Shown in pieces: positions 325 to 34,213 of a DNA stretch of 53,201 nucleotides; the stretch's first letter is position 1, and every line of letters starts with the position of its first letter. Where the stretch lies: assembly GCA_003331365.1 (NCBI GenBank), contig QOQC01000001.1:1-53201 (forward strand), written 5' to 3'. Under the pieces are notes generated by a model. It worked only from the letters and a program-made list of their open reading frames with translations. It was not told the DNA's origin and did not search any database. This stretch comes from Flavobacteriales bacterium. GTDB taxonomy: Bacteria; Bacteroidota; Bacteroidia; Flavobacteriales_D; Crocinitomicaceae. The translations under genes were made by a program, and so were the position numbers.

Positions 325-2169
325 TTATTCTACAGTAACTGATTTGGCCAGGTTTCTTGGTTGATCAACATTACAGTCTCGCATAACTGCTATGTAGTAC
401 GAAAGAATTTGAAATGGCACCGTGGCAATTAATGGGACCAAATACTCATTAGTTTCAGGAATCTCAATGTAATCATCGGCAAATTCTTTGACCTGTTCGT
501 CTCCTTCAGTAACTACCGCAATGATTTTTCCTTTTCTCGCTTTAACTTCTTGAATATTGCTAACTACTTTTTCGTATGAAGGACCTTTTGTTGCTATTAC
601 AAAAACAGGCATTTCTTCATCGATGAGCGCAATAGGCCCATGCTTCATTTCAGCGGCAGGATAGCCTTCCGCATGTATGTATGAAATCTCTTTCAATTTT
701 AATGCGCCCTCTAAAGCAACGGGAAAAGAGCTTCCTCTTCCCAAGTAAAGTGCATTGGAGGCATCTTTATATTTCGCAGCAATCTTTTTGATTTTCTCCG
801 TTTTGTCTAAAACCAATTGAACTTTATTTGGAATGGCTTCCATGGAAGACAGAAGATTTCTATACGTTGATTCGTTCAGCTTTCCTTTTTTTCTTGCTAA
901 AGATGCGGCCATTAATGTCAATACCGTCACTTGTGCAGTGAAAGCTTTTGTTGATGCCACGCCTATTTCAGGTCCAGCATGTGTATATGAACCAGCATCA
1001 GTAATTCTCGAAATAGAAGATCCAACCACATTACAGATACCAAGAATCGTTGCACCCTTGCTTTTTGCCAGCTCCAGTGCTGCCATAGTATCTGCTGTTT
1101 CACCAGATTGAGAAATCGCCAATACAATATCTCCCTCGTTGATTATTGGATTCCGGTATCTAAATTCACTTGCGTATTCCACCTCAACATTAATACGAGC
1201 AAGGTCCTCAAATAAGTACTCCCCAACCAAACAAGCGTGCCAGCTCGTTCCGCAGGCAACCATGACTATTCTGTTTGCCTTTATGATATCATCTTCGTAA
1301 TACTTAATTCCTCCTAAGGATACCCAGCCTTCTGATGCATTTAGTCTTCCCCTAAAACAGTCTTCTATTGAGCGTGGTTGTTCATGAATTTCTTTGAGCA
1401 TAAAATGATCGTATCCTCCCTTCTCTAATGCCTCAAGGTGAAGCTCAAGTTCTTCAATATATGGGTCTTGAAGGTCCTCCTCGTAATCATAAATTTTCAA
1501 ACCTTTTTCTTCATTCAATATCGCAATCTCCCCATCATTAAGGTAAACCACCTGCTTTGTGAATTCGACTATTGGAGTGGCATCAGAAGCAACATAAAAA
1601 TCATTGTCTTTTCCAATCCCCAATACAAGAGGGCTACTTTTTCTCGCGGCTACCAATTTGTTAGGCTCGTCCTTACACATAACAACAATGGCATATGCAC
1701 CAACAACTTGTTGAAGGGCAAGACGCACAGATTTAGCGAGTTTATAGCCGGTTTTTTCTTTGATATCAGAAATTAAATAGCTTAGGACCTCAGTATCCGT
1801 ATCACTTCTGAATGTATACCCTTTGTTTTCCAGCTCCTGCTTAAGTGTATCGTAATTCTCAATGATTCCATTATGAACTACAGCTAGGTCTCCACTTTCA
1901 GAAATGTGAGGATGAGCATTTTTATCGTTTGGAGGTCCGTGGGTTGCCCATCTTGTGTGGCCAATACCTCGGTTTGCAGAAATATCTTTGCCTTCTACAG
2001 CCTCTTGAAGATTTGAGACCTTTCCTTCCTTTTTGTAAATATTAATATTTCCATCTTTCAATAGAGCAACGCCTGCACTATCATAACCTCTGTACTCCAA
2101 TCTTTTTAATCCACTTAAGACAATTGGAAATGCTTCTTTCTGTCCAATATAGGCGACTATTCCACACAT
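325..2169 (-). CDS. glmS: Glutamine--fructose-6-phosphate aminotransferase (isomerizing)
   Basis: 614 aa. N-terminal MCGIVAYIG (Ntn catalytic Cys2), two SIS domains (GTSWHA, SQSGETADT) and the canonical C-terminus AKSVTVE. Confidence 0.97.
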   Translation of the reverse strand: MCGIVAYIGQKEAFPIVLSGLKRLEYRGYDSAGVALLKDGNINIYKKEGKVSNLQEAVEGKDISANRGIGHTRWATHGPPNDKNAHPHISESGDLAVVHNGIIENYDTLKQELENKGYTFRSDTDTEVLSYLISDIKEKTGYKLAKSVRLALQQVVGAYAIVVMCKDEPNKLVAARKSSPLVLGIGKDNDFYVASDATPIVEFTKQVVYLNDGEIAILNEEKGLKIYDYEEDLQDPYIEELELHLEALEKGGYDHFMLKEIHEQPRSIEDCFRGRLNASEGWVSLGGIKYYEDDIIKANRIVMVACGTSWHACLVGEYLFEDLARINVEVEYASEFRYRNPIINEGDIVLAISQSGETADTMAALELAKSKGATILGICNVVGSSISRITDAGSYTHAGPEIGVASTKAFTAQVTVLTLMAASLARKKGKLNESTYRNLLSSMEAIPNKVQLVLDKTEKIKKIAAKYKDASNALYLGRGSSFPVALEGALKLKEISYIHAEGYPAAEMKHGPIALIDEEMPVFVIATKGPSYEKVVSNIQEVKARKGKIIAVVTEGDEQVKEFADDYIEIPETNEYLVPLIATVPFQILSYYIAVMRDCNVDQPRNLAKSVTVE

Positions 2170-2172
2170 AAA

Positions 2173-3456
2173 CTAATAGCTTGTATATGTTAATACTAAG
2201 CGGGGTTTTTCCTTATTGATTGTATTTTTCCCATTAAATACAATCCGCTCTGCCGAATTTATAAAATATAAAGGAGATACGACAAGTTCGGTTAATGGTA
2301 AAGTTTTATTTACAATAGCCTGGGTATATTCACGAATATTGATATTAAACCTTTTATTGAAGTCGTCATATATTCCTATTATGCCGACATTCACTAAGTC
2401 AGTGGATAATGAATCTGCACGAGTGGCAACAGAAATATTTATCCCTGGCTGATATTTGTGACCTGATTGAAATTGGATGGGTAGCTCAAGGTCTGCACGA
2501 TGAACAACAATATTTTGGGGTAAATTTTGAAGCCCAGGAATCGAAAGCGCAGCGCGGTTATGAAAGGCTTGTGCATAATACGTGTTATTTCCTAATGTTG
2601 AATCTTGAATTACCTGATCGGCGGCTGTTCCTGAATTATTGATTTGAACATGTGTAAAGTCAGCACATTCAGAATTAATTAATAAATCATAAGAAGTGGC
2701 TACAGTGTCTTGATGGAAATAAATTGTAGCTTTTGAAGAGGGGTCATTGATGTCAAAATAAAATGCCGCACCCTCTCCGAGAGTTTGAGCTGGGTTGTTT
2801 GTAGTTATATATAAGCCTTTAAAGAATTCTAAAAATGCTTCATTACTTGAAAATGTACTTGAACCACTTGTGGCCTCGACAATTAATGAACGGGCAAGGT
2901 TTGTATCCAAATATAGTCGAAGCTGCGATGCTAGTGAATCCTCGCCAATGACTGTAGGGTCAAGGGGTTTCGGAGTAATTGTAGAGTACTCGGCAGGGAC
3001 TAAGTTAATACCATTATGTGCCACGGTACTAAACGAATAATAAGTTGAGTCAATAGATAGGGATTCGTTAAGCTCATATACTTCAAAAGTTTGTTCGTCT
3101 AACTCTCCGTAATAGCCGAGGTATTCTAACCCTAAAACAAAAGAATCAATTACAATAGACGAAGGGTCGCCAAAGTTGGGGTCAACACCTGCCAATCTAA
3201 GCTGAGTATAGAATGAAGATGAAAACTCTCCAAATAATGGGTCGTTGTATGATCCTAATAAAACATTCGATGCATTATCAGAAATAATAGAGTCTTCCAA
3301 GATGGTGTATGAATTAATATCGAAAGTATCTACTGATGTTCCTGCAAGTAAAGTCTCTTGATCAATGACATCAGAACCCAACTGATATTCCTTTTTCTTG
3401 CATGAAATTAATGTGGCAGTCGCAACGACAAACAAGAAGACAATACGAAGCATCAT
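2173..3456 (-). CDS. DUF4270-family lipoprotein
   Basis: 427 aa. Lipoprotein signal (LISC). LLGSYNDPLFGEFSSSFYTQLRL resembles DUF4270. It sits between a short GlgA-like gene and glmS, the synteny I recall as conserved in Flavobacteriia. The gap to glmS is 3 nt. Confidence 0.65.
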   Translation of the reverse strand: MMLRIVFLFVVATATLISCKKKEYQLGSDVIDQETLLAGTSVDTFDINSYTILEDSIISDNASNVLLGSYNDPLFGEFSSSFYTQLRLAGVDPNFGDPSSIVIDSFVLGLEYLGYYGELDEQTFEVYELNESLSIDSTYYSFSTVAHNGINLVPAEYSTITPKPLDPTVIGEDSLASQLRLYLDTNLARSLIVEATSGSSTFSSNEAFLEFFKGLYITTNNPAQTLGEGAAFYFDINDPSSKATIYFHQDTVATSYDLLINSECADFTHVQINNSGTAADQVIQDSTLGNNTYYAQAFHNRAALSIPGLQNLPQNIVVHRADLELPIQFQSGHKYQPGINISVATRADSLSTDLVNVGIIGIYDDFNKRFNINIREYTQAIVNKTLPLTELVVSPLYFINSAERIVFNGKNTINKEKPRLVLTYTSY

Positions 3457-3462
3457 TTATCT

Positions 3463-4284
3463 TTATGCCAAAGCGGTTTCTTGTATTACTTTATCATAGA
3501 ACTCAGAAAGCTCCTTGGCCATATGTTCTTCTTCTACAAAATCTAATTTATGAGAAGACAACTCATCATAAATACCTTTCAGATCGGCATTTAAATCTTC
3601 GGAAGAGATATTTACACCATCAAAAAACTGCAACATGTTCTTTGAATAATTTAAGAAAGAAGTGTCTTTGAATTTTTCGCAAACTGAATCTTCAAATCCT
3701 TCAAATTTTAATTTATCTGCAAATCGTTTATCCCAGTTTTCTTTATAGCTATCATTATAAAGGCTATAAACAACTTTAGTTTCCTTAAAATGAGGGTCTT
3801 TTCCGTACATCTCTTTTATGTACAGCCCCATGATTCCAGTCATGTAACCATGACAGTGAATGACATCCGGCTGCCAACCTAATTTCTTAACCGTTTCCAG
3901 GACTCCTCGACAGAAAAACATCGACCTTTCATCATTGTCTTTAAATTCTTTATCCTTGTCATCTGTCAAGGTATATTTACGTCTAAAATATTCATCATTG
4001 TCAATAAAGTATACCTGCATCCTTGCCGCAGATACGGAAGCCACCTTGATGATTAGTGGGTGATCATGGTCGTCAATACAAATGTTCAATCCAGACAATC
4101 GAATGACCTCATGTAGTTGATGTCTTCTTTCGTTAATTACTCCAAAACGAGGCATAAATACACGAATCTCTTTGCCCGCCTCTTGGATGACCTGAGGAAG
4201 CTTTCTTGATGTAGCTGCAATTTCTGATTTAGGTAAAAATGGTGATATCTCTTGTGATATGTAAAGGATTTTTTTCTTTTCCAT
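3463..4284 (-). CDS. Short glycogen/starch synthase-like protein (GT5 N-terminal half only)
   Basis: 273 aa. KILYISQEISPF...K resembles the GlgA N-terminal ADP-glucose/acceptor lobe. There is no C-terminal Rossmann half. Confidence 0.7.
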   Translation of the reverse strand: MEKKKILYISQEISPFLPKSEIAATSRKLPQVIQEAGKEIRVFMPRFGVINERRHQLHEVIRLSGLNICIDDHDHPLIIKVASVSAARMQVYFIDNDEYFRRKYTLTDDKDKEFKDNDERSMFFCRGVLETVKKLGWQPDVIHCHGYMTGIMGLYIKEMYGKDPHFKETKVVYSLYNDSYKENWDKRFADKLKFEGFEDSVCEKFKDTSFLNYSKNMLQFFDGVNISSEDLNADLKGIYDELSSHKLDFVEEEHMAKELSEFYDKVIQETALA

Positions 4285-4301
4285 AGGTGTTATTAGGAGT
4301 G

Positions 4302-4309
4302 CAAAAGTA
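4302..4309 (-). promoter_or_regulatory. Candidate Bacteroidota -7 promoter box (TAnnTTTG) for the glgA-like/DUF4270/glmS operon
   Basis: The minus strand reads TACTTTTG, 17 nt upstream of the ATG at 4284. Confidence 0.4.
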
Positions 4310-4340
4310 GGGATTTTTATCTAACTTTCCCAAAAAGAAT

Positions 4341-4348
4341 TAGCTTTG
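4341..4348 (+). promoter_or_regulatory. Candidate Bacteroidota -7 promoter box (TAnnTTTG) for panC
   Basis: TAGCTTTG is an exact consensus match, 21 nt upstream of the ATG at 4370. The TTG at 4346 used as the start in the ORF track lies inside this box. Confidence 0.4.
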
Positions 4349-4369
4349 TCTCCTATTATTCCTAGAAAA

Positions 4370-5212
4370 ATGGACACTTTTAGAACTTTTTATGATTTTA
4401 GTGAGTTAAAAGCGTATCTTAAAAATGAAAGGGCCGGACAGTCTATTGGATTAGTTCCAACAATGGGGGCATTGCATGAAGGACATCTTTCCTTAGTGAA
4501 AAAAGCACATAATGAGAATGACCTGGTGGTTGTTACCATTTTTGTTAATCCTAAACAGTTTAATGATCCAACGGATTTAAAAAAATATCCAAGAACAATT
4601 GAAAAGGACCTAGGGCTTTTGTCAAAATTTAAAAATGTATTGATATGCATCCCCAATGAAGATGCTGTCTATCCCAAAAATGACCCATATCAACCAGTTG
4701 ATTTAGGAAGATTAAATGAGGTGCTTGAGGGAAAATATCGACCAGGGCATTTTGACGGAGTTGCTCATGTTGTGCATAATTTTTTTCGTTTTATCGAACC
4801 AACAAGAGCTTATTTTGGTCTCAAAGATTACCAACAATTTGCTGTAATAAAAAAAATGACAGCACAGTCCGGTTTACAGCTTGAGCTTATTGGCTGCGAA
4901 ACGACCCGAAACAAAAGGGGCTTGGCCTTAAGTAGTAGAAATCAAAACCTGAGCAATAAAGAATTAGAAGATGCTCTGGTCATTATAGATACTTTGACTT
5001 TTATAAAAGAAAATCGCAGAAAATATAATCTTGATGAGTTAAAAGAAAATGCCATTACTCGTTTCAAAAAGAGTTCCCTCCTTCTCGAGTACCTAGAAGT
5101 TGTGGATTCGGAGAGCTTTGAAAAAGTCAATAATATTGGCACACAAACGGTATGTTGCGTGGCCGCATACTGCGGAGAAGTTCGTCTCATAGATAATATT
5201 TTACTTGAGTAG
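4370..5212 (+). CDS. panC: Pantoate--beta-alanine ligase
   Basis: VPTMGALHEGHLSL (HIGH-type motif), GHFDGV, FGLKDYQQ and ALSSRN are classic PanC motifs. I prefer the ATG at 4370 over the TTG at 4346. Confidence 0.95.
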   Translation: MDTFRTFYDFSELKAYLKNERAGQSIGLVPTMGALHEGHLSLVKKAHNENDLVVVTIFVNPKQFNDPTDLKKYPRTIEKDLGLLSKFKNVLICIPNEDAVYPKNDPYQPVDLGRLNEVLEGKYRPGHFDGVAHVVHNFFRFIEPTRAYFGLKDYQQFAVIKKMTAQSGLQLELIGCETTRNKRGLALSSRNQNLSNKELEDALVIIDTLTFIKENRRKYNLDELKENAITRFKKSSLLLEYLEVVDSESFEKVNNIGTQTVCCVAAYCGEVRLIDNILLE

Positions 5213-5227
5213 ATTAATAAAAACTGA

Positions 5228-6232
5228 ATGAAAAAACACGTAAGTACACTGATTAAGATATTCTTATCTCTTGGCTTAGGAATATACCTTACGTGGTATC
5301 TTTTCGATGTGATGTCAACAAATGATATCGAAATATTCAAAAAAGCAATTATTAATTCGAATTATTGGCTGATTGGTCTTTCATTGTTTCTAGCACTTTT
5401 ATCCTATTTCTCAAGGGCATATAGGTGGGGATATACCCTCTGGCCAATGGGTTATAAAAGCTCTTTTAAAAACCAATACCATTCCTTAATGATTGGATAC
5501 CTTGTTAACATGACAATTCCAAGAGCAGGTGAATTTTCCAGAGCAATTATGCTTAAACGATCTGACAATATTCCTGTTGGTCCAAGTTTTGGCACTATTG
5601 TTACCGAGAGAATTATTGATATGCTCATTATGTTGTCTTTGGCATTAGTAGCTATTGGAATGAGCCCAAAGGAAACCTCTTTAATATTCACAAGACTTAA
5701 AGAAAGCTTTGCTGGCCCTACCGATCAAAGCAATAATGGCGATATATGGCTGTATATTTTTATATCCATTGGTGTCGTCTTGCTATTGTTATTATGTGTG
5801 AAAACTATTCGGCAACGAATTATAGTATTTCTGATGTCCTTAAAAGATGGGCTTTCCTCTATTTTTAAGGTAAAGCAATACTGGTGGTACCTGTTACATA
5901 CCTTATTTATTTGGGTCTCCTATTTGGTCATGTTTGCCTTACCTTTTTATGCCGTTGAAGGTGCTTCAAGCGTTCCATTCAACGGGATGCTTTTGGCTTT
6001 TTGTTTTGGAGCGCTTGGCATCTCCTTTACGAATGGAGGGATGGGAGCATATCCTTTGTTAATAGGTGTTACTACAGCTTATTATTTGGAAAACCAAGGT
6101 ATTGAAAATGCGGAAGCCATCGGATATGCCCTTGGAATGATCATATGGGCTACCCAAACCATCTTTTTAATACTTTTAGGATTAATTTCACTTATCTTAA
6201 TGCCAAGAAAATATGATTCCAAAGTAAAATGA
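5228..6232 (+). CDS. Flippase-like / lysylphosphatidylglycerol-synthase transmembrane-domain (UPF0104) membrane protein
   Basis: 334 aa polytopic membrane protein. FSRAYRW...IPRAGEFSRA resembles the UPF0104/LPG_synthase_TM family. Confidence 0.65.
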   Translation: MKKHVSTLIKIFLSLGLGIYLTWYLFDVMSTNDIEIFKKAIINSNYWLIGLSLFLALLSYFSRAYRWGYTLWPMGYKSSFKNQYHSLMIGYLVNMTIPRAGEFSRAIMLKRSDNIPVGPSFGTIVTERIIDMLIMLSLALVAIGMSPKETSLIFTRLKESFAGPTDQSNNGDIWLYIFISIGVVLLLLLCVKTIRQRIIVFLMSLKDGLSSIFKVKQYWWYLLHTLFIWVSYLVMFALPFYAVEGASSVPFNGMLLAFCFGALGISFTNGGMGAYPLLIGVTTAYYLENQGIENAEAIGYALGMIIWATQTIFLILLGLISLILMPRKYDSKVK

Positions 6233-6735
6233 GTAAAGCTCAATTTGAAAATAAAATATCAACAATAAAAAATCTCCATGAACAACGTCACGCATGGCAG
6301 AAGAGCAAAAGTCGTGTTTGTTTTACAAATGGATGCTTTGATATCCTTCATAAAGGGCATGTGAAGTACCTTTCTGAGGCAAAAGCCTTGGGCGACATAT
6401 TGATCGTGGGTGTAAATAGCGACGATTCCGTTAGACGGCTCAACAAGGGCCCCAATCGGCCTGTTAATGACGAAAACTCTAGGGCGTACCTCATTGCCGC
6501 ACTAGAATTTGTAGATGTTGTTTTGATTTTTAATGAGGATACTCCAGAAAACCTCATCAGTGAAATTGTTCCAGATGTGCTTGTGAAAGGGGGGGACTAT
6601 GACCCTACTGTAGAAGACCGCAATCACCCAAAGTATATTGTGGGTAGAGACGTAGTATTAAAAAATAGTGGCTCCGTAAAAACAATTGATTTTGTGGAGG
6701 GATTCTCAACAACTGCAGCACTTAAAAAATTATAA
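6229..6735 (+). CDS. rfaE2: D-glycero-beta-D-manno-heptose 1-phosphate adenylyltransferase-like cytidylyltransferase (RfaE domain II type)
   Basis: 168 aa. FTNGCFDILHKGHVKYL is the HxGH nucleotidyltransferase motif, and VVLIFNEDTPENLI...VLVKGGDY also fits. The start overlaps the upstream gene by 4 nt. Confidence 0.8.
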   Translation: MSKAQFENKISTIKNLHEQRHAWQKSKSRVCFTNGCFDILHKGHVKYLSEAKALGDILIVGVNSDDSVRRLNKGPNRPVNDENSRAYLIAALEFVDVVLIFNEDTPENLISEIVPDVLVKGGDYDPTVEDRNHPKYIVGRDVVLKNSGSVKTIDFVEGFSTTAALKKL

Positions 6736-6773
6736 GACAATTCTAACGGTATAGCTAAAACAGGTAAAAACTT

Positions 6774-9446
6774 TTATCCTCCCCCTTTAATCCCAATAAT
6801 TTCCTCTTCCTCTTCTTGTTCCTTTTTTTGCTCTTCTTTTAATCGCTCTAGGGCTTTTTTGAGTTTAGATTCTTTCTTTTTTTCTGGTTCAACCTTCTCT
6901 TCAATGACCTCATCTTTAGTTTCACCGGTGGTCGGGTTCCAATCTATTTTAATCTCCTCTTTAGGTATTTCTTCTTTTTTATACTCTTTGATCGTTGTAT
7001 CATTTTTAAAAGCACCGAACTCGGATTTCAGCATTTCTTTTATTTGCTTTTTCTCTTCCTTTCGATATTCTTTTGCACTTTGCTTTTGCTGTTCACGGTC
7101 CCATTCTAAATCAGGGTCATATATGTTTCCAGTCATTTTCAAAAACATGCGAAAACCGGTTCCGTCATCAATAATTTCTCCAAACTCACTATCTCTATCA
7201 TTTGTTAAGAGGTCCCTAAATTTAAAATCAAATCTATAATCCACTTCATTGGAAAAATCATGGGTCCCTGAAACATTCATGTTTAAGGCCGAGGATGCAA
7301 TATTCATCCTAGGAACAATTACCTGCTCGTTTTTTATGGTTATTTCATTTTTTAAAGTACTAAATGAAATTTCATTCAGCCTCTTTTCAAGGAGTTGAAG
7401 GTTCTTTTTACCCATGGCTAATTTTGCAGGACTTTCCATTATGCTTTCTGCAATATCCTCCATCAATACTGAATTTTTTAGCACTCCATTATTGATTTCC
7501 AAATTAATTTTACTGTCAATTGATGGATAAATGATTCCGTGTTCTAAATTGAAGTCTGCCGCAAATTTCATATTTAGACTGGCGCGACCTGATATGTTCT
7601 CATGTATAATGACATCTTGATAAAAATTATTCCATTCCTGAAATGCTCTTTTAACATCAATATTATACGATTTTAGCTGTGTGTTTAGCTTAAATTGTTC
7701 GGGTTGAATTTCTTCAATTTTTAAATCTCCTCGTATGTTGGCACCGGCATTACTCAAACTTAAATTCGAGAATCCAATGCTACGATTTTGGATGTTCATT
7801 TGTCCCTTTAATTTTTCATAGCGATGGCCTCCATATTCAATTTTTCCTATATCGATTTGAATATTACCACTCAGATTATCAGGTAGTGCAAAGATTTTTC
7901 CATCTGCAATTTTTTCTTCTTTCGTCGTTGAGCCTAAGTCCTCAAGGGATACATTATCCCCTTTCAATAACAAATTCATAGAGAGTGCTTCATCATTGTA
8001 TAAATAGTTAAAAACATTTGACAATGAACCATTCAATTGAAGGTCTGATTCATCCACTAATAATGAAAATCGATTTACCCTAAGATCTCTCTTGGTAAAT
8101 TTCATTTGTCCATTAACCTCCTTAAACGCCCGTTTGTCATCTTTTAATTTGAAATTGCTATTTAGAATTGTGACATCTCCACTACACTTTCTAAACTTGA
8201 TTTCATTATTCTTTTGCTGATTGGCTTCAAAATCACAATACACGCTAAGCTTTCCATTGATTTCATCGAATTCGGGAAAATGAAACAGTCGGTGTGCAGA
8301 ATTAAGATTAATGGTTCCCTTAGCGAATCCTTTGAGTCTTGGATTTTCAAAATCAATAATGGAAAGGTTCCCTGAAAAAGGGCCTGTTTCGGAATCAAAA
8401 CTTACCTGGGATAACATAAGCTCTTCCAAAGTTGAATCCCTCTTATTGTAATGTCCATTTAATTGAATGTTTCTCAGCTTTATGTTCTCTACAGGCTCTA
8501 TAATTTCACCTTTGTTAACAGCGAAATCGCATGCGACATCTATTGGGTCTGTATTCTTCGTTCCTCCTTCAATGGATAAATTAAAATCAAGCATACCTTT
8601 ACCCGATAAATTTTTAAGATGATTGTCTTGGTCTATGGAGAATTTCTCAACCGCATCAGTCAATTGAATGGCATTCGATGCGATATTAAACTTTAAGCTG
8701 TCTTTATCTAATTTGCCGTTAATCTTAAATGGAAGTCCTCCGATTTGAATTTGAGCCATTGGTAATTTCGTTACTTCGTTTTTTTGATCAACATTTAGTT
8801 TTAGACTGAAGTCTATTTCTTGATTCTTGACCAATGTCACTCCTGAGCTCTTCGCGCTGTGTAAGAGAATTTGACCAGAAGTGAGCATTTCAAATTCATC
8901 GGTAGATAATTCTCCAGTCAATTTAACTTCTTGAAAATTGGATTTATATTCCTGATGGGTAATTTCATTTAAATAACTCACCTGCATAGATTTCAAAGTA
9001 ACGGCTTGCAGCTCAAGCTTAAATTCTGAATCGGGGTTTTCATCGGAGCTCTTTACAATATTGTAATTGTCCCTTCCAAGAGAATCGACATATAAATTCA
9101 ATTCTCCATTAGAAACATTGATTTGTTTTAAGTTGTAATCTCCAAATATTAGATCAAAGGGATTAAATCTCAGGTTGAATTTTTTACTTTTTAAAAGACT
9201 TGTGGATGTATTCCTACTTTTGATTTCTACATCGAGTAGGTCAACCGAAATATTTGGAAAAGTTGACCAAAAAGCAAAGGCCACGTCACCTACCTCCATA
9301 GGAACCTCAAGGTTTTTATTTATTTCCGCAATGGATGTTTCAATGATTTTATCCTTGAAAATAAATACCAAAAGAGAAATAAACAAAAAGCCCCCGACTA
9401 CTATTCCGAGCGTCCATTTCGCAATTTTAATGGCTTTTTGCTTCAT
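6774..9446 (-). CDS. AsmA-family outer-membrane biogenesis protein
   Basis: 890 aa. It has an N-terminal TM anchor, a long beta-rich repetitive body and a K/E-rich C-terminal tail. The size and architecture fit AsmA-like proteins. Confidence 0.6.
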   Translation of the reverse strand: MKQKAIKIAKWTLGIVVGGFLFISLLVFIFKDKIIETSIAEINKNLEVPMEVGDVAFAFWSTFPNISVDLLDVEIKSRNTSTSLLKSKKFNLRFNPFDLIFGDYNLKQINVSNGELNLYVDSLGRDNYNIVKSSDENPDSEFKLELQAVTLKSMQVSYLNEITHQEYKSNFQEVKLTGELSTDEFEMLTSGQILLHSAKSSGVTLVKNQEIDFSLKLNVDQKNEVTKLPMAQIQIGGLPFKINGKLDKDSLKFNIASNAIQLTDAVEKFSIDQDNHLKNLSGKGMLDFNLSIEGGTKNTDPIDVACDFAVNKGEIIEPVENIKLRNIQLNGHYNKRDSTLEELMLSQVSFDSETGPFSGNLSIIDFENPRLKGFAKGTINLNSAHRLFHFPEFDEINGKLSVYCDFEANQQKNNEIKFRKCSGDVTILNSNFKLKDDKRAFKEVNGQMKFTKRDLRVNRFSLLVDESDLQLNGSLSNVFNYLYNDEALSMNLLLKGDNVSLEDLGSTTKEEKIADGKIFALPDNLSGNIQIDIGKIEYGGHRYEKLKGQMNIQNRSIGFSNLSLSNAGANIRGDLKIEEIQPEQFKLNTQLKSYNIDVKRAFQEWNNFYQDVIIHENISGRASLNMKFAADFNLEHGIIYPSIDSKINLEINNGVLKNSVLMEDIAESIMESPAKLAMGKKNLQLLEKRLNEISFSTLKNEITIKNEQVIVPRMNIASSALNMNVSGTHDFSNEVDYRFDFKFRDLLTNDRDSEFGEIIDDGTGFRMFLKMTGNIYDPDLEWDREQQKQSAKEYRKEEKKQIKEMLKSEFGAFKNDTTIKEYKKEEIPKEEIKIDWNPTTGETKDEVIEEKVEPEKKKESKLKKALERLKEEQKKEQEEEEEIIGIKGGG

Positions 9447-9623
9447 TGTTTCTAAATTACATGGTTATCTCTCTGCTAATAATTAAATCCTATCATTTTA
9501 TCAACCGAAATATGTGAGTTGGTAACAAAAAGATTACTTTTTTCAATTTTTTTTTACGCTCTTGTGAACAAAGTGTTTTCTTTTTTGTCTAATGTTTGTA
9601 TTTAAACTTTAAACAAAATAGAA

Positions 9624-11189
9624 ATGAAAAGAAAAATTACCCCATTTGGTGTATTGAAAAGCACCCTTGGAGCAATCGCTTTTTTTGCGGTAAGTTCCAT
9701 TTATGCACAAACCAACGTATTTGATGATGTGATTGCCACAAGTCCAGATCACAACTATTTAGAAGCGGCTTTAGTACAAGAAGGCTTAGACGTAGCACTT
9801 CAAACCTCTCCTGAATTGACAGTCTTCGCTCCAACCGACCAAGCATTTACTGATATTGCAACGGCTTTGGGGACAGACATCAACGGTCTTTTAGAATTAC
9901 CAAACTTGAGTGATATCTTGACTTATCACGTTTTGGGAGCTGTTGTTCCTTCTAGTGCAGTTACCAATGGATTGATTGCAGAACCATTATCTACAACCAA
10001 TACCCTAAAGCTAACTGTCACTGGAAATGGTGAAGTATACGTTAATCAAGCGAAAGTTTCTGCAGTAGATCTAACTACCGATAACGGTGTCGTACACGTA
10101 ATTGATGGAGTTGTTCTTCCAAATGAAACTGTAGTTGATGTAGCTATTGACAACGGATTCAATGCTTTAGCTTCTGCCGTGATATCGTCAGAGTTGATGC
10201 CTGTATTGACTAACCCATTGGCAACATACACCGTATTCGCGCCAACCGATCAAGCATTTCAAAATCTAGCTGACCTAGTCGGTGTTCCACTTAATGCTTT
10301 GTTTGACCCTGCAGTAATTCCAACTGCGAGCTTACAAGCCGTTTTAGGAACTCACGTGTTGGGTGCGATTGTGCCTTCTGCAGACGTTACAAATGGTGCG
10401 ATTGTTGACAACATTGTGGGAATTAATACACTAAAACTTACAGTGAAGAGCTCGGGAGACGTATTTGTCAATCAAGCTCAAGTAACGGCTGTTGACGTAA
10501 ATTCTGACAATGGAGTTGTACACGTAATCAACAGTGTATTGCTTCCAGACGAAACGGTTGTTGATATTGCCATAGATAATGGATTTAGCTCACTAGCAAC
10601 AGCGGTAATAACTGCAGAATTGATGCCTGCATTGACCGATCCATATAATTTATTTACGGTTTTCGCCCCCACAAATGATGCGTTTGACAACCTTGCAGCG
10701 GCTTTAGGAACAGATATTAATGGTTTACTTGCTCTTCCAAACCTTGCAGATATTTTACTCTATCATGTAGTCGGTGGTGCAGTATTGTCTACTGACCTTA
10801 CCAATGGTAACGTGCCAACCTTAAATGGAGCAGACATCACGGTTGATCTTTCAAGTGGTGTAATGATTAACGATGCCATGGTAACCACTGCAGATGTTGA
10901 GGCAGATAATGGTGTGGTACACATTATTGATAAGGTCTTGTTACCTGGTGCTGGAATTTCAGAGCAAAGTATCGACGTCAGTATTTATCCAAACCCAGCA
11001 ACTGAAAAGCTTTATATTGAAAGTTCGGCTGATGTAGATTTTTACATAACTGACTTATCAGGTTCTGTTGTGAAAAGAGGAACAACAGGCATGAATGAAA
11101 TATCTATATCCAATCTGAATAGTGGTGCTTATTTAATCCACACTTCAGGATCTAAAAATGGTCAAGTTTATAGATTTATTAAGCAATAA
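9624..11189 (+). CDS. Fasciclin (3 x FAS1) domain protein with T9SS C-terminal sorting domain
   Basis: Signal peptide. TVFAPT(D/N)xAF occurs three times and DNGVVH(V/I)I occurs three times. The C-terminus SIYPNPATEKLYIES...GAYLIH is a T9SS tail. Confidence 0.9.
   Translation: MKRKITPFGVLKSTLGAIAFFAVSSIYAQTNVFDDVIATSPDHNYLEAALVQEGLDVALQTSPELTVFAPTDQAFTDIATALGTDINGLLELPNLSDILTYHVLGAVVPSSAVTNGLIAEPLSTTNTLKLTVTGNGEVYVNQAKVSAVDLTTDNGVVHVIDGVVLPNETVVDVAIDNGFNALASAVISSELMPVLTNPLATYTVFAPTDQAFQNLADLVGVPLNALFDPAVIPTASLQAVLGTHVLGAIVPSADVTNGAIVDNIVGINTLKLTVKSSGDVFVNQAQVTAVDVNSDNGVVHVINSVLLPDETVVDIAIDNGFSSLATAVITAELMPALTDPYNLFTVFAPTNDAFDNLAAALGTDINGLLALPNLADILLYHVVGGAVLSTDLTNGNVPTLNGADITVDLSSGVMINDAMVTTADVEADNGVVHIIDKVLLPGAGISEQSIDVSIYPNPATEKLYIESSADVDFYITDLSGSVVKRGTTGMNEISISNLNSGAYLIHTSGSKNGQVYRFIKQ
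9717..10967 (+). repeat. Three tandem FAS1 domain-coding units (about 0.41-0.43 kb each) inside the fasciclin CDS
   Basis: The H1 motif threonines fall at residues 66, 203 and 345. Units 2 and 3 are still recognisably similar at the DNA level (for example gttgtacacgtaat, gttgatgcctg(t/c)attgac). Confidence 0.8.
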
Positions 11190-13010: not shown

Positions 13011-14993
13011 CTAAACTCTTTTTGTCTTTAACTTTTTGTAAAAGTAGCTCATCGATAATATGTGAGGTAAGCTGATGCAAGAAATGAAAATAAAGATTTG
13101 GGCAATATTATAATCCCAACCCATTCCTGAATTCAAGAAAAGAACTACAAATAAAACAAAAGCGCCTAGATTAAATGGCAAGGCTGTTTTGAATAAACTC
13201 CAATTGCTTTCTTTGAAAGATGTTCTCAAATGTTTCCATCCACTCCAGCTGTGATGAAAGACAAAATAGATCGCAAATGACATTACCAGGGGCATCCAAT
13301 AGCTTAATGCGAGAAAACAGGTAAGTAAAACCCAAGGTAGTGACCGGTGCAATCTGGCTAATATAAAAGAAACAATAAGTGACCATATGAATAAGCCTAG
13401 CCATGGAAGTTCCGATGGCAGCGCTTGAACATTCAATGTCTTCAAGATTACATTCAATTCAGAAACATGGGAGAAAAATAGAGCTGAAAACATGAGAAGT
13501 CCCCAAAGAAACCCAACGAATCTCGAATTGATTTTCCATTCCTGAATGTCGGTTTCACCAAAGTGCCACGCCGAATATATTATAAATGTCACCAATGCTA
13601 CCGTTGGTGAAATAAGCCAAACCAAATAAGCCATAGACATGACACTTAAATACTTGAATATAAAGGATAGATTTATTTTTTTATTATCAGAAAATAGGCC
13701 TGTTTTATGATCCATTGCCCCGTGAGGTATCCCAACCAAAAATAGACCAATGGCAATTAAAGCATATATACTTAATTCTGCATATTCAGGAAGTATGAAA
13801 TGTAATAATCCATATAACATCAGGGGTGCAAACAGTATAAGTTGAGGCTTCGATTTTTCGATGAATAAATACAATACAGCTTTTAAAAAAGTACCAATTT
13901 GAAGCTTCGAAAACATTCCCATATCATCCTTTAAACTCGAGTTTTCATCTAAAAACCGCAAAATATAGCTCAGGGATTGAGACGAAAAAAGACGATTAAA
14001 AATGGGCTTACCCATTTGGGGCCAAACAGCGAGTATGTATATCAATAGTCGGTCATAAAATTTAAATCTTGATGAGGATTTCTGTTTTAGTATTGACTGC
14101 CCGACTTGTGCCGACAAGGTTTGTGCATGTTTATACATGTTCTTAAAGGCATATCCCGTACTCGGTTTTACCATATGGGCACGTGTTCCAATCGGTATAA
14201 TTCTTTTAGACTGTTGGCACTTTGGCATATCCATAAACATGGGTATTACCCCTCGTTCTACTTCAGCGATATTAAAGCTTCCATAGTTACGGTGGATATA
14301 ATTTTTCAAATCTCTTTGGGCAGCTTCAGTATTGATTTTTTCTTTTCCAAATCTGGTGAGTTCAAATAAGGCCTCACTGTTTGAATATGGGAGTATATAA
14401 ACAAACTGGGTTCCACCATCTTGATTCACATTAAAATCCATTAACGTACAGGTATTTTCATCCAACACAGCATCCTTCAGCTTTACTTTGTACCCTGTAA
14501 AAGATTGCCAGATGTTCTGTTTTTCAGATAAGGGCATTTTAATTTTTGGAGGTCTTGAATCAAAAACCATGTGAGCCTCATAAGTTGTTTTGGAAGTTGT
14601 AATCAATACCAAATTCTTTTCTTCAATTTGAGCAACCTTCTCTCTGCTCATCGTAACATCGTATTGTTTTAAAATCTTTCGCGTTTTGTTGTAGAGCCCT
14701 TCACAACTAATATGGTGATACTTCAATGGATTGATTTCACGCTTCTTCTTTTGGTTAATCATTACTTTTGACCAGCTGTGAGTTATGATCTCCTTGTAGT
14801 CTTCAATGATGTCGTCTGATGGCTTGGCCCAAAAACAAAATGTTTTGTCATTGGTTTTTTTTTCAGAGGGTTCAATGATTAAAATCCGTTTATTTCGGAG
14901 CTCGTTCTTCTTGTGGAGCTCATTGATTAAAATACACGAACTTGCACCAAACCCGGAAAAAACAACATCATATACGTGTTGAGCAGTTTTCAC
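13011..14993 (-). CDS. Fusion protein: lycopene beta-cyclase (CrtY-type, N-terminal ~380 aa) + Brp/Blh beta-carotene 15,15'-dioxygenase (C-terminal ~280 aa, membrane)
   Basis: N-terminal motifs: YDVVFSGFGASSCIL (dinucleotide fold), DKTFCFWA, QSFTGYKV, MDFNVNQDGGTQFVYILPYS, ERGVIPM, PSTGYAF. The C-terminal part is polytopic with the His motifs GIPHGAMDH, SAWHFGETD and FVFHHSWSGWKH. Confidence 0.8.
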   Translation of the reverse strand: MKTAQHVYDVVFSGFGASSCILINELHKKNELRNKRILIIEPSEKKTNDKTFCFWAKPSDDIIEDYKEIITHSWSKVMINQKKKREINPLKYHHISCEGLYNKTRKILKQYDVTMSREKVAQIEEKNLVLITTSKTTYEAHMVFDSRPPKIKMPLSEKQNIWQSFTGYKVKLKDAVLDENTCTLMDFNVNQDGGTQFVYILPYSNSEALFELTRFGKEKINTEAAQRDLKNYIHRNYGSFNIAEVERGVIPMFMDMPKCQQSKRIIPIGTRAHMVKPSTGYAFKNMYKHAQTLSAQVGQSILKQKSSSRFKFYDRLLIYILAVWPQMGKPIFNRLFSSQSLSYILRFLDENSSLKDDMGMFSKLQIGTFLKAVLYLFIEKSKPQLILFAPLMLYGLLHFILPEYAELSIYALIAIGLFLVGIPHGAMDHKTGLFSDNKKINLSFIFKYLSVMSMAYLVWLISPTVALVTFIIYSAWHFGETDIQEWKINSRFVGFLWGLLMFSALFFSHVSELNVILKTLNVQALPSELPWLGLFIWSLIVSFILARLHRSLPWVLLTCFLALSYWMPLVMSFAIYFVFHHSWSGWKHLRTSFKESNWSLFKTALPFNLGAFVLFVVLFLNSGMGWDYNIAQIFIFISCISLPHILSMSYFYKKLKTKRV

Positions 14994-15095
14994 TTTGTAG
15001 TGGTGTTTCTATTAGAACACATAAAAACCTGATTTGTTGACAATTAATTCAATACATAAATTATGTAATCGAGAAAGAGTTATCCCAAGTAATAA

Positions 15096-16484
15096 TCAAT
15101 TCACAATTAGCTTGAGTGTCTCGTTTTGCAAAATCAATTCTTCGGGAAATTCGATTTTTAGAAAATAGGTGCCTTGAGCAACATTAAGATTAATTGGCGC
15201 AAAGCTATTATCGTAAATTTCTTTCGCTAAAATTTCTTTTCCCGCCTGGTCAGATAGTGTAATACTGAATCGACTTATGTGATCATCTGCCATGCGAATA
15301 AAGACCTGTTCACCTTTAGGTGCAGGATTTGGGTAGCAGGACACAACTGATGGCGATTTGGCCTCTTCAAAAAAGGCCCTATCAAACTCAAATAAATACA
15401 AGCCACTTATACGATCTGAAATCAAAACCTGATTATTAAAAGCTCGAGCCTCTACGCCCCATGCGCCCCACATAGAAAACTCATTTCCAGATAGATCTGT
15501 ATGTGTGTCGTAAGCTGCAATTTCATTTGGAGGATTATTTCTTAAATCATAAATTCTTAGACCATCATTATAATAGGCCACATAAGCCAAGTTTCCAAGA
15601 ACCTTGATGTTATGTGCCGTTTTATCATAGGGTGTGTTTTCAGCTCCAAAAAGCTGTTGAACTTGTAGCCCATAGTTCTCTGCAACGGTACACTTTTTAA
15701 TTCTTGTGCCAGGTGTTTCATCTGCAAAAACATAGGTCGATCCATCCTCACTTAAGCTGCCTTGATGGTTGTAACCTTGTTCTTGATAAAATTCAAGATT
15801 GTTCAAATATATTGGGGCTTCAGGAATGGAAAAATCATAAACCCTAATCCCTTGAAAACCACAATTAAGAATACCTACCGATTCTTTAAACTCAAAATCA
15901 TGGACCTCTGAAAGGTCATCAAACCCACTAAATATTATACTTGGAGAAAGTGGGTTTTCAAGTGAATATACCCGAAGCGGAATCATAGATGTTTCCATGC
16001 CATTAACAATTGGGGTTACTAAACACAAATACATCAATGCCCGAGAAGTGTCAATATAAATGTTATGTGCTTTGCCTACCCTTTCGTCTTGAATATCTGC
16101 AGCAAGGTTTACCGCAGTAGGAAGATTAGACAAGTCTATAATTTGAAGTGAAGCGTCACCTTCATCTCCAATAGCGTATAAAAAATCATTGTAATGGGCA
16201 TATTCTCTTGTAATTGCCTGGGAAGAAAGAAAATTTCCTTTGATACTGTCAATGAATGTCAAACTATTGTCGACGGTAATTTCAAAAATGTGAAATCCCT
16301 CTGTTGTGCCAATAACCGCATAATCGTGTCCAGCCTTAGAAAATGAGTAGCAACCGCTGTAACGAACCTGGCTGGAATTTGAAATCAAAGATGAATCAGA
16401 CCAGTGGTCAAGAAGTGTGACATTTTTAATTTGTGCCGATAAAAACAAAGGAAATGCAAAAAGATAAAAGACCAACACCCTCAT
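15096..16484 (-). CDS. LVIVD-repeat / choice-of-anchor-B-like beta-propeller protein with T9SS C-terminal sorting domain
   Basis: 462 aa with a signal peptide and repeated hydrophobic-strand motifs (LYAIGD, MYLCLV, AYVAYY, LYLFEF). The C-terminal tail is CYPNPAPKGEQVFIRM...GTYFLKI. Confidence 0.5.
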   Translation of the reverse strand: MRVLVFYLFAFPLFLSAQIKNVTLLDHWSDSSLISNSSQVRYSGCYSFSKAGHDYAVIGTTEGFHIFEITVDNSLTFIDSIKGNFLSSQAITREYAHYNDFLYAIGDEGDASLQIIDLSNLPTAVNLAADIQDERVGKAHNIYIDTSRALMYLCLVTPIVNGMETSMIPLRVYSLENPLSPSIIFSGFDDLSEVHDFEFKESVGILNCGFQGIRVYDFSIPEAPIYLNNLEFYQEQGYNHQGSLSEDGSTYVFADETPGTRIKKCTVAENYGLQVQQLFGAENTPYDKTAHNIKVLGNLAYVAYYNDGLRIYDLRNNPPNEIAAYDTHTDLSGNEFSMWGAWGVEARAFNNQVLISDRISGLYLFEFDRAFFEEAKSPSVVSCYPNPAPKGEQVFIRMADDHISRFSITLSDQAGKEILAKEIYDNSFAPINLNVAQGTYFLKIEFPEELILQNETLKLIVN

Positions 16485-17014
16485 TTCATGAACTTTTTAC
16501 AAAACTCCCAAAGTATAATTCCGGCACATACACTGACATTTAGACTGTGCTTTGTTCCAAATTGGGGAATTTCTATTACCCGATTTGAATAATTCACTAC
16601 CTCTTGATCCACCCCATTGACCTCATTTCCAAAAATTAATGCCGTAGGGTGTTTTGGCAGGGCGGAAACCTCCTGTAAAAGTGTCGTCTCTTTTGTTTGC
16701 TCAACTACACAAATCTCATACCCATCTTTTTGCAAGTCTTTAATACATGATAGTGTATTTTTATAATGCTCCCATTGCACAGTTTCTGTTGATCCAAGTG
16801 CAGTTTTATGAATATCCCTATGAGGTGGTGGCGCTGTAATTCCACATAGACAAATCTTTTCAATATTAAATGCATCTGCTGTTCTAAAAAAAGAACCAAT
16901 ATTATTGAGGGAACGAATATCATCCAATACCACTACTATTGGAAACTTCTTTTGATCACGATATTCAGCTTCAGTTTTTCTATTTAACTCCCAAAGCTTT
17001 AATTTTTTGTTCAT
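16481..17014 (-). CDS. TrmH/SpoU-family RNA 2'-O-methyltransferase
   Basis: 177 aa. [22 protein letters not shown] and [18 protein letters not shown] are the three SpoU motifs. Confidence 0.85.
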
Positions 17015-17098
17015 TCTTTTAAAATATCTTTTTCCTATACTTTGATTTCCAAAGGGATGCGATTAACTTTACCTGCAAAATTTAGAAAATCATTTCAC

Positions 17099-19729
17099 TT
17101 GGCGAAATCCACTAAGGAAAAAGGAGCAACAGAAACTCCTTTGATGAGACAATATAATCAAATCAAGGCGAAGCACCCAAAGGCGATGCTGCTTTTTCGT
17201 GTTGGTGATTTTTATGAAACTTTTGGCGAAGATGCTGTCAAGGCATCAAACATCTTAGGTATTATTTTGACAAAAAGAAAAAATGGTGCAGCCGCCCACA
17301 TAGAGCTTGCTGGCTTCCCTCACCATTCGATAAACACCTATTTACCTAAGCTTGTCAGAGCTGGTGAAAGAGTTGCTATCTGCGATCAGCTCGAAGATCC
17401 TAAAATGACCAAAAAAATTGTAAAGCGGGGTGTTACTGAATTGGTAACTCCTGGAGTTTCTTTCAATGATGAGGTGCTGAATCAAAAGGAAAATAACTTT
17501 TTGTGCGCCGTACAACTTAACAAGCAAAATCACGGTATTGCCTTACTTGATGTTTCTACAGGAGAGCTTTTGGTGGCTCAAGGAGATCATGAATATATAA
17601 ATAAACTGATTTCAAATTTCAATCCCAGCGAAATCCTATTCCAAAAAAATAAAGGCAAGGAATTCGAAGGCTTGTTTGGTACGTCTCATTATACCTTTAG
17701 GTTGGATGACTGGGTATTTACCTCGGATTTTGCAGAAGAAATATTAAACAAGCACTTTGGCACTAAATCTTTGAAGGGGTTTGGTGTAGAAGGAATGACA
17801 GAGGCGATTATAGCTGCGGGAGCCGTATTTCATTATCTCGGAGAAAGTGAACATAAAAAACTAGATCACATTACCGGAATATCAAGAATCGAAGAAGACA
17901 AATACGTCTGGTTAGATCGCTTTACCATTAAAAATCTTGAGCTCGTTTCTTCACCGCATGAAAATGCAAGAACGCTTTCTGACATTTTAGACGAAACTCA
18001 AACGGCGATGGGAAGTCGTATGCTTCGGAGATGGATTATGCTTCCTCTTAAAAACAAAAAGCCCATTGAAGACCGAATTGAAGTTGTGGATTTTTTAAAA
18101 TCAAATGAAAAAATTGGCTTCGAATTGTCTCAAAGACTCAAAAATATTGGAGATCTAGAGCGATTAATTTCCAAAGTTGCTGTGGGCAGGGTGAATCCAA
18201 AAGAGGTGGCACACTTGAAAAAAACATTGCTTGAGATTGACCCATTAAAGAAACTACTTGATACCAGTAATCAACCAAAAAGTTTAAGTCATCTGATTGA
18301 GAAACTAGATTGCTGTCCATTATTAATTGAGCTCATTAATAAGTCACTGTGCGAAGAACCTGCAGGCCAAATTGGAAAAGGAGAGGTGATAAAGTCGGGA
18401 TGGAACAAGGAACTTGATGAACTTCGTGAGATTGCTTACCATGGAAAAGATTTTCTTGCCGAGCTTCAACAAAGAGAATCAGAACGTACGGAAATCCCGA
18501 GTCTTAAAATCGCATTTAATAACGTTTTTGGATATTATATAGAGGTAAGGAACACACACAAGGATAAGGTTCCTGAAGAATGGATTAGAAAACAAACCCT
18601 TGTAAATGCAGAAAGATATATCACCGAGGAGCTCAAGGTTTACGAGCAAAAAATATTGGGCGCTGAAGAAAAAATACTGGCACTTGAAACGCGTTTGTTT
18701 CATGAATTGGTATTAGAAATGGTCAATTTCATCACTCCCATTCAATTAAATGCCCAAATTCTCGGTAGACTCGATTGTTTGTTTTCTTTTTCAGTAATTG
18801 CGGATAAGTACAATTACTGTCGCCCCGAAATTAACGAAGGTCATTCTATCGACATCTCAAATGGAAGGCATCCGGTCATAGAACAGTCTCTTGAAATCGG
18901 AGAAAAATACATTTCAAATAACATCCACCTTGATCAAGAGACGCAACAAATCATGATGATTACTGGGCCAAACATGAGCGGTAAAAGTGCATTAATCAGA
19001 CAAACAGCACTCATAGTAATTATGGCACAAATGGGATGTTTTGTACCAGCACAAAACGCAAAAATCGGATTGGTAGATAAGGTTTTCACAAGGGTAGGGG
19101 CATCGGACAATATCTCTTCGGGTGAATCTACTTTTATGGTTGAAATGAACGAAACGGCAAGTATTTTGAATAATATTTCACCAAGAAGTCTCATCTTACT
19201 AGACGAAATCGGTCGTGGAACGAGCACCTATGATGGCATTTCAATAGCCTGGGCTATTGCAGAATACCTGCATGAAAACAAAAAAGCAAAATGCAAAACC
19301 CTTTTTGCAACCCACTACCACGAGTTAAATGAAATGACCCATAAGTTTAACCGAATTAAAAACTTCAATGTCTCCGTGAAGGAGGTAGGGAAGAAAATTC
19401 TTTTTATAAGAAAGCTGGTTGAAGGAGGCAGCGAACACTCTTTCGGTATCCATGTGGCCAAAATGGCAGGGATGCCAGCTCAGGTCGTGAAAAGATCAGA
19501 ACAGATACTCAACGATCTAGAAGCTATGCATTCATCTGTCGGTGGAAAGAAAAACAAAGAAGAAATCAAAACAAGTTTGAACGACTCCATGCAACTAAGC
19601 TTTTTCCAATTGAATGACCCCGTTTTGGAACAAATTCACGAAGAGCTTAAAAATGTTGATATTAACGGACTCACACCGGTTGATGCGCTTTTGAAACTAA
19701 ATGAGATTAAAAAACTATTAGGGAATTGA
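17099..19729 (+). CDS. mutS: DNA mismatch repair protein MutS
   Basis: [20 protein letters not shown], the Walker A motif [20 protein letters not shown] and THYHEL. The start is uncertain. The TTG at 17099 gives MAKSTKEK..., and the alternatives are the ATG at 17057 or the ORF-track TTG at 17042. Confidence 0.93.
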
Positions 19730-28574: not shown

Positions 28575-28621
28575 TAAAAAAGAAAAGGCCCAAGTTTACC
28601 CTGAGCCTTTTACAAATTAAT

Positions 28622-29347: not shown

Positions 29348-29515
29348 AAATTAAAATTTAATTAATACTGATTTAGCAACAACAAGATATGAAAAAGCAA
29401 TTCAAAACAGAAACTTTATGGTGCCTTAAACGCACTACAAGGTTTTAGTGTTAATAAATAGAATATGAAACTTTAATTAAAATCGCTTAATTTAAGGCTC
29501 GTCTACCCCATTAAA

Positions 29516-34144: not shown

Positions 34145-34213
34145 TGTTTATTTTTTTTAGTGAGGTAAATTTATAACATTAATATGACTTTACGAAACGA
34201 TTAACACAAATTT

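Follow-up and report, generated by a model that had tools for sequence, protein, structure and literature searches.

The stretch of DNA analysed here, 53,201 nucleotides of contig QOQC01000001.1 from the Flavobacteriales bacterium assembly GCA_003331365.1 (Crocinitomicaceae), is referred to as the window. It encodes on its reverse strand a single protein of 660 amino acids, in which a CrtY-type lycopene cyclase is joined to a Brp/Blh-type beta-carotene 15,15'-dioxygenase (13011..14993). The protein is probably a bifunctional membrane enzyme that would convert lycopene into retinal for an opsin encoded elsewhere in the genome. Both domains are recognised by profile searches, conserved across a large family and under purifying selection; in relatives the gene adjoins a proteorhodopsin (PR) gene, and some counterparts are split into two genes. 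From these observations we infer the two activities, a hand-off of beta-carotene between them and an opsin in the same genome. A preliminary description of the locus had read the gene as a single chain of CrtY and Brp/Blh for retinal synthesis, and this core reading is borne out by the profile matches, the conserved putative catalytic residues and the adjacency of PR in relatives.

Two enzyme halves in one chain

The coding sequence has a GTG start at 14993 and a stop codon at 13011-13013, and its 660 codons form one open reading frame (ORF) with zero internal stops; all features of the gene given below lie on the reverse strand. The preliminary description had claimed two enzyme signatures in this one ORF. 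Pfam and NCBIfam profiles match both halves, PF15461 and TIGR03753 assign the C-terminal half to Brp/Blh with scores above their cutoffs, and every motif quoted in that description is present in the 660-amino acid protein.

The N-terminal half, residues 1 to ~378 (13860..14993), is of the CrtY type dependent on flavin adenine dinucleotide (FAD). It matches PF05834 (Lycopene_cycl) over residues 9-363 with an E-value of 7.5e-46 and a score of 157.4 bits (cutoff 23.4), and the match takes in positions 1-369 of the 380 in the profile. Both stand-alone and split CrtY relatives align with residues 4-381. A Foldseek search, which was informative for this flavoprotein half only, gave as top matches FAD-dependent geranylgeranyl reductases and monooxygenases of the p-hydroxybenzoate hydroxylase (PHBH) type (3oz2, E 5e-13). 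No sequence homologue of either half was found in the PDB.

Conservation was judged from two alignments of 77-82 family members with 25-80% identity. The dinucleotide-binding GxG motif (G14-F-G16, 14946..14954) follows the first beta strand, and its two glycines are kept in at least 90-97% of the family members; in the AlphaFold2 model it lies between a strand at residues 7-13 and a helix at residues 17-28. The signature motif NDKTFCFW at residues 48-55 (14829..14852) is invariant or nearly so among 82 fusion proteins. The same applies to L209, E211, T213, R214 and F215 in the motif LFELTRF at residues 209-215 (14349..14369), where E211 is the putative catalytic glutamate, which we take to be the likely counterpart of the one in the FLEET-type cyclase motif. 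Conserved motifs of the cyclase half include QSF (163-165), TQFxY..P (195-202), LxExTRF and K276..TGY.

The C-terminal half, residues ~387-660 (13014..13835), is a predicted multi-pass membrane domain that matches PF15461 (BCD) over residues 416-650 (E 1.6e-28, 100.5 bits against a cutoff of 28) and TIGR03753 (Brp/Blh) with 117.6 bits against a cutoff of 95.25. Residues 366 to 659 are modelled as helices only, hydrophobic throughout, with a predicted local distance difference test (pLDDT) score of ~90 or above. The characterised, stand-alone Blh of the uncultured marine bacterium 66A03, from a proteobacterial PR cluster, belongs to the same family by both profiles and shares the multi-helix membrane architecture; it has nine transmembrane helices and no solved structure, and its iron site is made up of four histidines at positions 21, 78, 188 and 256, which are conserved among 500 homologues (bioRxiv 10.64898/2026.08.06.743266). 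The fusion shows the same four-histidine pattern, with H424 in GIPHGAMDH (13722..13724), H477 in SAWHFGE (13563..13565), H581 in FVFHHSW (13251..13253) and H644 in SLPHIL (13062..13064). All four are invariant among the 77-82 family members, and D428 is likewise conserved. Because their spacing of 53/104/63 residues resembles the 57/110/68 of Blh 66A03, they are taken, in this order, as the putative iron ligands, an equivalence drawn from spacing and profile alignment and not from pairwise alignment. Two further residues, H509 and E512 (nt ~13456-13467), are invariant in the 82-sequence alignment and kept in at least 90% of the other, and are not among the Blh iron ligands proposed in the literature.

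The two halves meet at residues ~379-386 (EKSKPQLI, 13836..13859) with no linker between them. The preliminary description had placed the junction near residue 380 (nt ~13840), and alignment to natural split pairs leads to the same place. The AlphaFold2 model, built from a 77-sequence alignment, has a mean pLDDT of 91.7 and a predicted template modelling (pTM) score of 0.82; the junction itself scores 90-96 and contains no low-confidence linker. Three helices, at residues 366-385, 388-400 and 402-425, run continuously from the helical C-terminal region of the cyclase into the membrane domain. A pTM of 0.82 for a two-domain protein indicates that the mutual orientation is confidently fixed, and the prediction of one rigid two-domain body is consistent with, and no proof of, a direct hand-off of beta-carotene.

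Both halves are under purifying selection in a clade where the gene is not linked to an opsin. The ratio of nonsynonymous to synonymous substitution (dN/dS, with dS partly saturated) is 0.11 for the cyclase half and 0.10 for the Blh half against an 80%-identical relative (L005), whose fusion lies on the 1.86-Mb scaffold CALSRW010000001.1, and 0.06 and 0.11, respectively, against a 68%-identical one (L006). With dN/dS at ~0.1 in both halves, the gene is maintained by selection despite the lack of opsin linkage. The comparison of 13011-14993 with L005 10001-11983 also shows a mosaic divergence within the gene, with much lower synonymous (pS 0.37) and nonsynonymous (pN 0.05) divergence in the Blh half than in the CrtY half (pS 0.66, pN 0.16), which may reflect recombination between lineages.

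Distribution, split counterparts and probable origin of the fusion

The fusion family is large and widespread, not rare. Twelve contigs that were assembled independently carry the identical 660-amino acid protein; they come from the NCBI metagenome-assembled genome (MAG) GCA_042095295.1, from one assembly at ENA and from several Logan assemblies, and the longer of these contigs all share the synteny of the window. A word-indexed homologue search yielded 1,319 relatives. The top 120 of these (clustered at 90% identity) are all two-domain proteins of ~550-690 amino acids, mostly 633-687 with a few shorter partials, and their identities range from 42% to 90%. When 1.84 billion representatives at 50% identity were searched exhaustively with HMMER, 4,283 matches were obtained, and 93 of the best 150 are at least 620 amino acids long. 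When one genome from each GTDB species was scanned, at least 126 species proved to encode a relative, and the 80 of the 126 carrier genomes that were examined are all MAGs or single-cell genomes. Within the Bacteroidota the carriers belong to the Flavobacteriales (including Crocinitomicaceae, Cryomorphaceae and Schleiferiaceae), Chitinophagales and Cytophagales, and outside these orders to Kapaibacteria/Ignavibacteria. No relative of the fusion was found on the viral contigs of IMG/VR. One fusion protein (P0054, MBL92965.1) is filed under a MAG called 'Myxococcales bacterium', where an error of binning or labelling is likely, and several MAG titles such as 'Chitinophaga pinensis isolate ...' among the carriers look like placeholder names.

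Among the unfused relatives, the nearest are overlapping crtY-blh pairs, collinear with the fusion and free of any linker, and not CrtY genes that stand independently. Pairs of this kind from uncultured Bacteroidota (L088-L090, L092 and L096) are the closest homologues of each half, at 36-38% identity for the cyclase and 32-35% for Blh, and they have the same gene order and a collinear junction. They differ from the fusion in that they encode two polypeptides, with a stop/start overlap of 4 or 16 nucleotides. A separate Blh gene comes after each of the CrtY genes P0227 (12 contigs), P0230 and P0263, with overlaps of 16, 4 and 4 nucleotides, respectively, and all three of these Blh genes score above the TIGR03753 cutoff.

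In L088 and L092, CrtY ends and Blh starts exactly at the residues of the window junction. The gene order in L092 is PR (a C-terminal fragment ending ...DAVNKIGFG...), crtY and blh. The window sequence ...FLKAVLYLFIEKS/KPQLILF... aligns with ...FLKALFLYIKK*/MNKWRYIIALF... in L092, where an ATGA stop/start overlap follows a run of six A (L092 1466-1495), and a single added A would fuse the two frames (...IKKMNKW...). Another relative, L091, shares 49% identity with the window protein and is split by a TAATG overlap (L091 1320-1380). Its break lies one helix downstream of the junction in L088 and L092, and the split is therefore probably a separate, secondary fission. L091 is known from a single contig of 1.8 kb, and represents either such a fission or a sequencing error.

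A phylogeny of the cyclase domain, inferred by crude neighbour-joining and without support values, contains a large, mostly fused clade that includes the window protein, in which a few split forms (L091 and P0230) are nested. A second clade consists mostly of split or solitary forms, with a few fused members. This mixed distribution suggests that fusion or fission happened more than once in the family. Most likely, a crtY-blh pair of overlapping, translationally coupled genes gave rise to the fusion by losing the stop/start overlap. A truly solitary CrtY gene (P0234) overlaps a gene for a photolyase-related protein (DPRP, PF04244; L095 3521-6188). A gene of this family also lies ~1 kb from solitary PR genes (L097-L099 7735-9207), so that a photolyase-related, light-linked neighbourhood recurs without blh.

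Opsin linkage and genomic context

To survey the opsins, the flanks of 88 loci were translated and searched with a proteorhodopsin probe. An opsin ORF was found in 35 of the 88 loci, one of which was confirmed as PF01036 (Bac_rhodopsin) with 146 bits. An opsin immediately upstream of the fusion and on its strand is found in 26 loci (gaps of 4-139 nucleotides, stop-to-stop), a divergent one in four and one directly downstream in five; in two loci the distance to the fusion is 4.7-6.2 kb. All 35 opsins contain H75, D97, T101, M105, E108, D227 and the Schiff-base lysine K231 and are, judging from these residues, ordinary green-tuned proton-pumping proteorhodopsins. In an all-versus-all clustering of flanking ORFs, no neighbour other than the opsin recurs across lineages; the clusters ranking next (TonB receptor, DUF349, acyltransferase, DUF819, CTP synthase and thiolase) reflect lineage-specific synteny.

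The opsin-linked loci are more distant relatives of the window, with an identity of at most 41%, the only exceptions being L025 and L032; the nearest opsin-linked relative in the Crocinitomicaceae is locus L035. With the same two exceptions, loci L005-L034 have no adjacent opsin. The isolated setting, which the preliminary description had considered unusual, is thus normal for the window's own marine clade. A position of the fusion within a crt cluster was considered and rejected, as neighbour clustering, Pfam annotation and a signature screen gave no crtE, crtB or crtI. Signatures of CrtI and CrtB, written as PROSITE-style patterns, matched in no locus flank, and a polyprenyl synthase lies near the fusion in two loci only (L020 and L023).

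Solitary PR genes that have neither blh nor a fusion within 6 kb occur in MAGs of Crocinitomicaceae and in another lineage. This arrangement is complementary to the opsin-less fusion locus, as would be expected if the opsin of this genome is encoded elsewhere, an idea to which it and the dN/dS of ~0.1 lend indirect support. The Crocinitomicaceae have been described as possibly possessing proteorhodopsin (PMC7214798). In one sample (ERZ28548063), the tetranucleotide correlation between a fusion contig (L085) and a PR contig (L098) is 0.68, in a noisy metric that gives 0.78 for the window against its own sub-locus. A divergent pair of genes for a SpoU methylase and MutS, which is located beside the fusion in the window (16481-19729), also flanks the solitary PR of another lineage (L097-L099 ~900-6744). 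There the PR gene is placed ~1.5 kb downstream of MutS, which may be a remnant of a shared neighbourhood or a coincidence.

In the window, the fusion is convergent with lysS, which ends at 13009 on the forward strand, so that a single base separates the two stop codons, as the preliminary description had stated. The gene located 5' of the fusion (15096..16484, reverse strand) has faint Pfam matches to LVIVD and Por_Secre_tail. The gap of 102 nucleotides between the two (14994..15095, reverse strand) is a candidate for the fusion's own promoter or for read-through from upstream. In a scan for promoters and terminators around the gene, matches were no commoner than in shuffled sequence; the scan was made without Bacteroidota promoter types, and its single weak sigma-70-like match (15088-15060) was not above chance.

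By Pfam annotation, the remaining genes of the window encode only housekeeping proteins and cargo of the type IX secretion system (T9SS). Cargo proteins with a Por_Secre_tail are unusually many (9624-11189, 15096-16484, 25818-28595, 28625-29350 and 32636-34147). Among them are a fasciclin-repeat protein, an LVIVD protein, an alpha-amylase bearing CBM48, a small protein of 242 amino acids and a secretion-tailed protein similar to AhpC/TSA. A gene for a protein of ~890 amino acids (6777-9464, reverse strand; an ORF of 896 codons from stop to stop) is kept in the NCBI and ENA copies of the locus and has no recorded Pfam match.

Proposed function, alternatives and known systems

In the proposed mechanism, the N-terminal flavoprotein half would face the cytoplasm and cyclise both ends of lycopene at the cytoplasmic face of the membrane, yielding beta-carotene. 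The attached multi-helix iron enzyme would cleave the 15,15' bond of beta-carotene to release two retinal, which would serve as the chromophore of a proteorhodopsin. Because the halves are joined helix to helix and without a linker, the two active sites would be fixed at a 1:1 stoichiometry, side by side in the membrane, and this fixed proximity would favour the direct hand-off of a very hydrophobic intermediate. In the marine, Crocinitomicaceae-like clade of Flavobacteriales to which the window belongs, the gene would have parted from its opsin and now resides among housekeeping genes, with the opsin and crtE, crtB and crtI expected elsewhere in the genome.

Several points weigh against this reading. 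The cyclase half scores below the NCBIfam cutoffs, with 74.8 against 215.2 bits for TIGR01789 (CrtY) and 104.6 against 209.5 for TIGR01790 (carotene cyclase). No opsin was found in the 53-kb window by Pfam annotation or by a motif and BLAST screen, and none within 10 kb of the fusion in the closest marine relatives. Likewise, Pfam annotation and a signature screen detected no crtE, crtB or crtI in the window, and none was found near the fusions of the closest relatives; the preliminary description had already reported a window without these genes and without an opsin, and here the screens agree with it. No cultured organism is among the listed carriers. Published work indicates that stand-alone Blh leaves lycopene uncut, whereas the monocyclic gamma-carotene is cleaved by it. 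The coupling would therefore have to permit both cyclisations before cleavage, or tolerate an acyclic by-product, some of which close coupling could in principle generate. Finally, substrate channelling of beta-carotene is a putative part of this reading.

A serious possibility, although not the one we favour, is that the fusion has no kinetic role and is a neutral or regulatory result of the lost crtY-blh overlap. Fusion would then ensure equal expression and co-localisation, and beta-carotene would still equilibrate with the membrane pool. Consistent with this, split and fused forms coexist and interconvert: the split L091 and P0230 fall within the mostly fused clade, a small number of fused proteins fall within the mostly split one, L091 is broken one helix away from the junction in L088 and L092, and one extra A in the A6 run of L092 would be enough to fuse its frames. 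However, the fusion persists in ~93 of the best 150 representatives at 50% identity, across several orders, and its junction is linker-free and predicted to be rigid (pTM 0.82), which together suggest a selected, fixed geometry. Taken further, the proposal of a bifunctional retinal-forming enzyme would make the fusion a dedicated retinal synthase and the sole lycopene cyclase of streamlined aquatic Bacteroidota. These would keep no free pool of beta-carotene and use carotenoids only for rhodopsin, and a continuous hydrophobic path would lead from the flavin to the iron across the linker-free interface. We regard this extension as possible but doubtful.

It is unlikely that one of the halves is non-canonical, for example with a cyclase half that is a monocyclase or takes a different substrate, or with cleavage of hydroxylated or keto carotenoids by the Blh half, so that the product would not simply be all-trans retinal. 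The scores of the cyclase half below the NCBIfam equivalog cutoffs could be read in this way, as could the nearly invariant H509 and E512, which are not described ligands. Blh enzymes are moreover promiscuous in vivo, where gamma-carotene, canthaxanthin, astaxanthin and zeaxanthin are cleaved according to published work. However, the tested unfused CrtY relatives from the Bacteroidota all fall below the NCBIfam cyclase cutoffs as well, with 52-107 bits. The low scores reflect how far the entire clade has diverged from the seed sequences and are no defect peculiar to the fusion. Furthermore, the PF05834 match spans 369 of the 380 profile positions, and the adjacent opsins are standard, retinal-binding green proteorhodopsins by their residues.

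It is quite improbable that the lineage of the window is decoupled from phototrophy, either because the opsin was lost and the gene is a relic or because an apocarotenoid product serves another purpose. The lack of an opsin in the 53 kb of the window and within 10 kb of the fusion in its nearest relatives would agree with a decoupling. Against it stand the dN/dS of ~0.1 for both halves, a length fixed at 660 amino acids within the clade, and the solitary PR genes in MAGs of the Crocinitomicaceae, a family described as possibly having proteorhodopsin (PMC7214798). The chance that the single ORF is an assembly chimera, or two genes joined by a sequencing frameshift, is negligible: split versions do occur in some relatives, but the identical fused protein on 12 contigs from different assemblers and samples, the hundreds of fused homologues and the conserved, collinear junction show that the fusion is not an artefact.

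Carotenoid-pathway enzymes also share one chain in engineered enzyme fusions for retinoid production and in fungal CrtYB/CarRA, where lycopene cyclase is fused to phytoene synthase. The fungal protein has other partner enzymes, which catalyse non-consecutive steps, and another type of cyclase. In the flavobacterial canon, a separate blh lies beside PR, and crtY and the other crt genes are separate (PMC3587595, PMC5932025). PR-bearing Flavobacteriia such as Dokdonia employ the same two enzyme families for the route from lycopene through beta-carotene to two retinal. They differ from the window in having separate enzymes and a PR-blh pair, whereas the window encodes one polypeptide without a linked opsin; in the opsin-linked relatives of the window it is the fusion that adjoins PR, and not blh alone. 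In L092, one of the split pairs, a PR gene likewise precedes crtY and blh.

A natural fusion of a lycopene cyclase and Blh is known from Thecamonas, where CrtI-B-Yc/d-Blh was read by its authors as a means of direct retinal production (PMC10016063). As in the window, the cyclase is joined directly to a C-terminal Blh domain. However, the Thecamonas protein is eukaryotic, contains two further domains and has a membrane cyclase of the heterodimer type, CrtYc/d, in place of the CrtY flavoprotein (PF05834). Since this cyclase is unrelated to CrtY, the architecture in the window is an independent, convergent fusion. The preliminary description tentatively mentioned a fusion of the crtY-blh type in Salinibacter, and this is not supported, as Salinibacter has the unrelated crtYcd and lacks crtY (PMC5877348). 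No description of a bacterial CrtY-Blh fusion was found in open-access full text and bioRxiv, which is no proof of its absence.

The fused retinal-synthesis family is thus apparently large, under-annotated and undescribed. The public names cover one half of the protein, being 'Brp/Blh family' or 'hypothetical protein' at NCBI and 'lycopene beta-cyclase' or K06443 at JGI/KEGG. The scores of the cyclase half below the NCBIfam cutoffs explain why the NCBI pipeline names the Blh half only. Metagenomic surveys that use crtY and blh as separate markers (for example PF05834 and PF15461) would score the fusion twice or mislabel it.

Both enzyme activities and the pathway from lycopene to retinal are textbook knowledge; the biochemistry is what would be expected, and current understanding is not overturned. 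What the family adds is a natural "Rosetta stone" fusion found widely among abundant marine and freshwater Bacteroidota that are uncultured. In retinoid metabolic engineering and rhodopsin co-expression, Blh is co-expressed with the genes of the carotenoid pathway and its expression level needs tuning, and a single gene expected to turn lycopene into retinal is of direct interest to both. The fused, split-overlapping and solitary forms found in related genomes constitute a clean natural experiment on the channelling of a membrane-bound intermediate.

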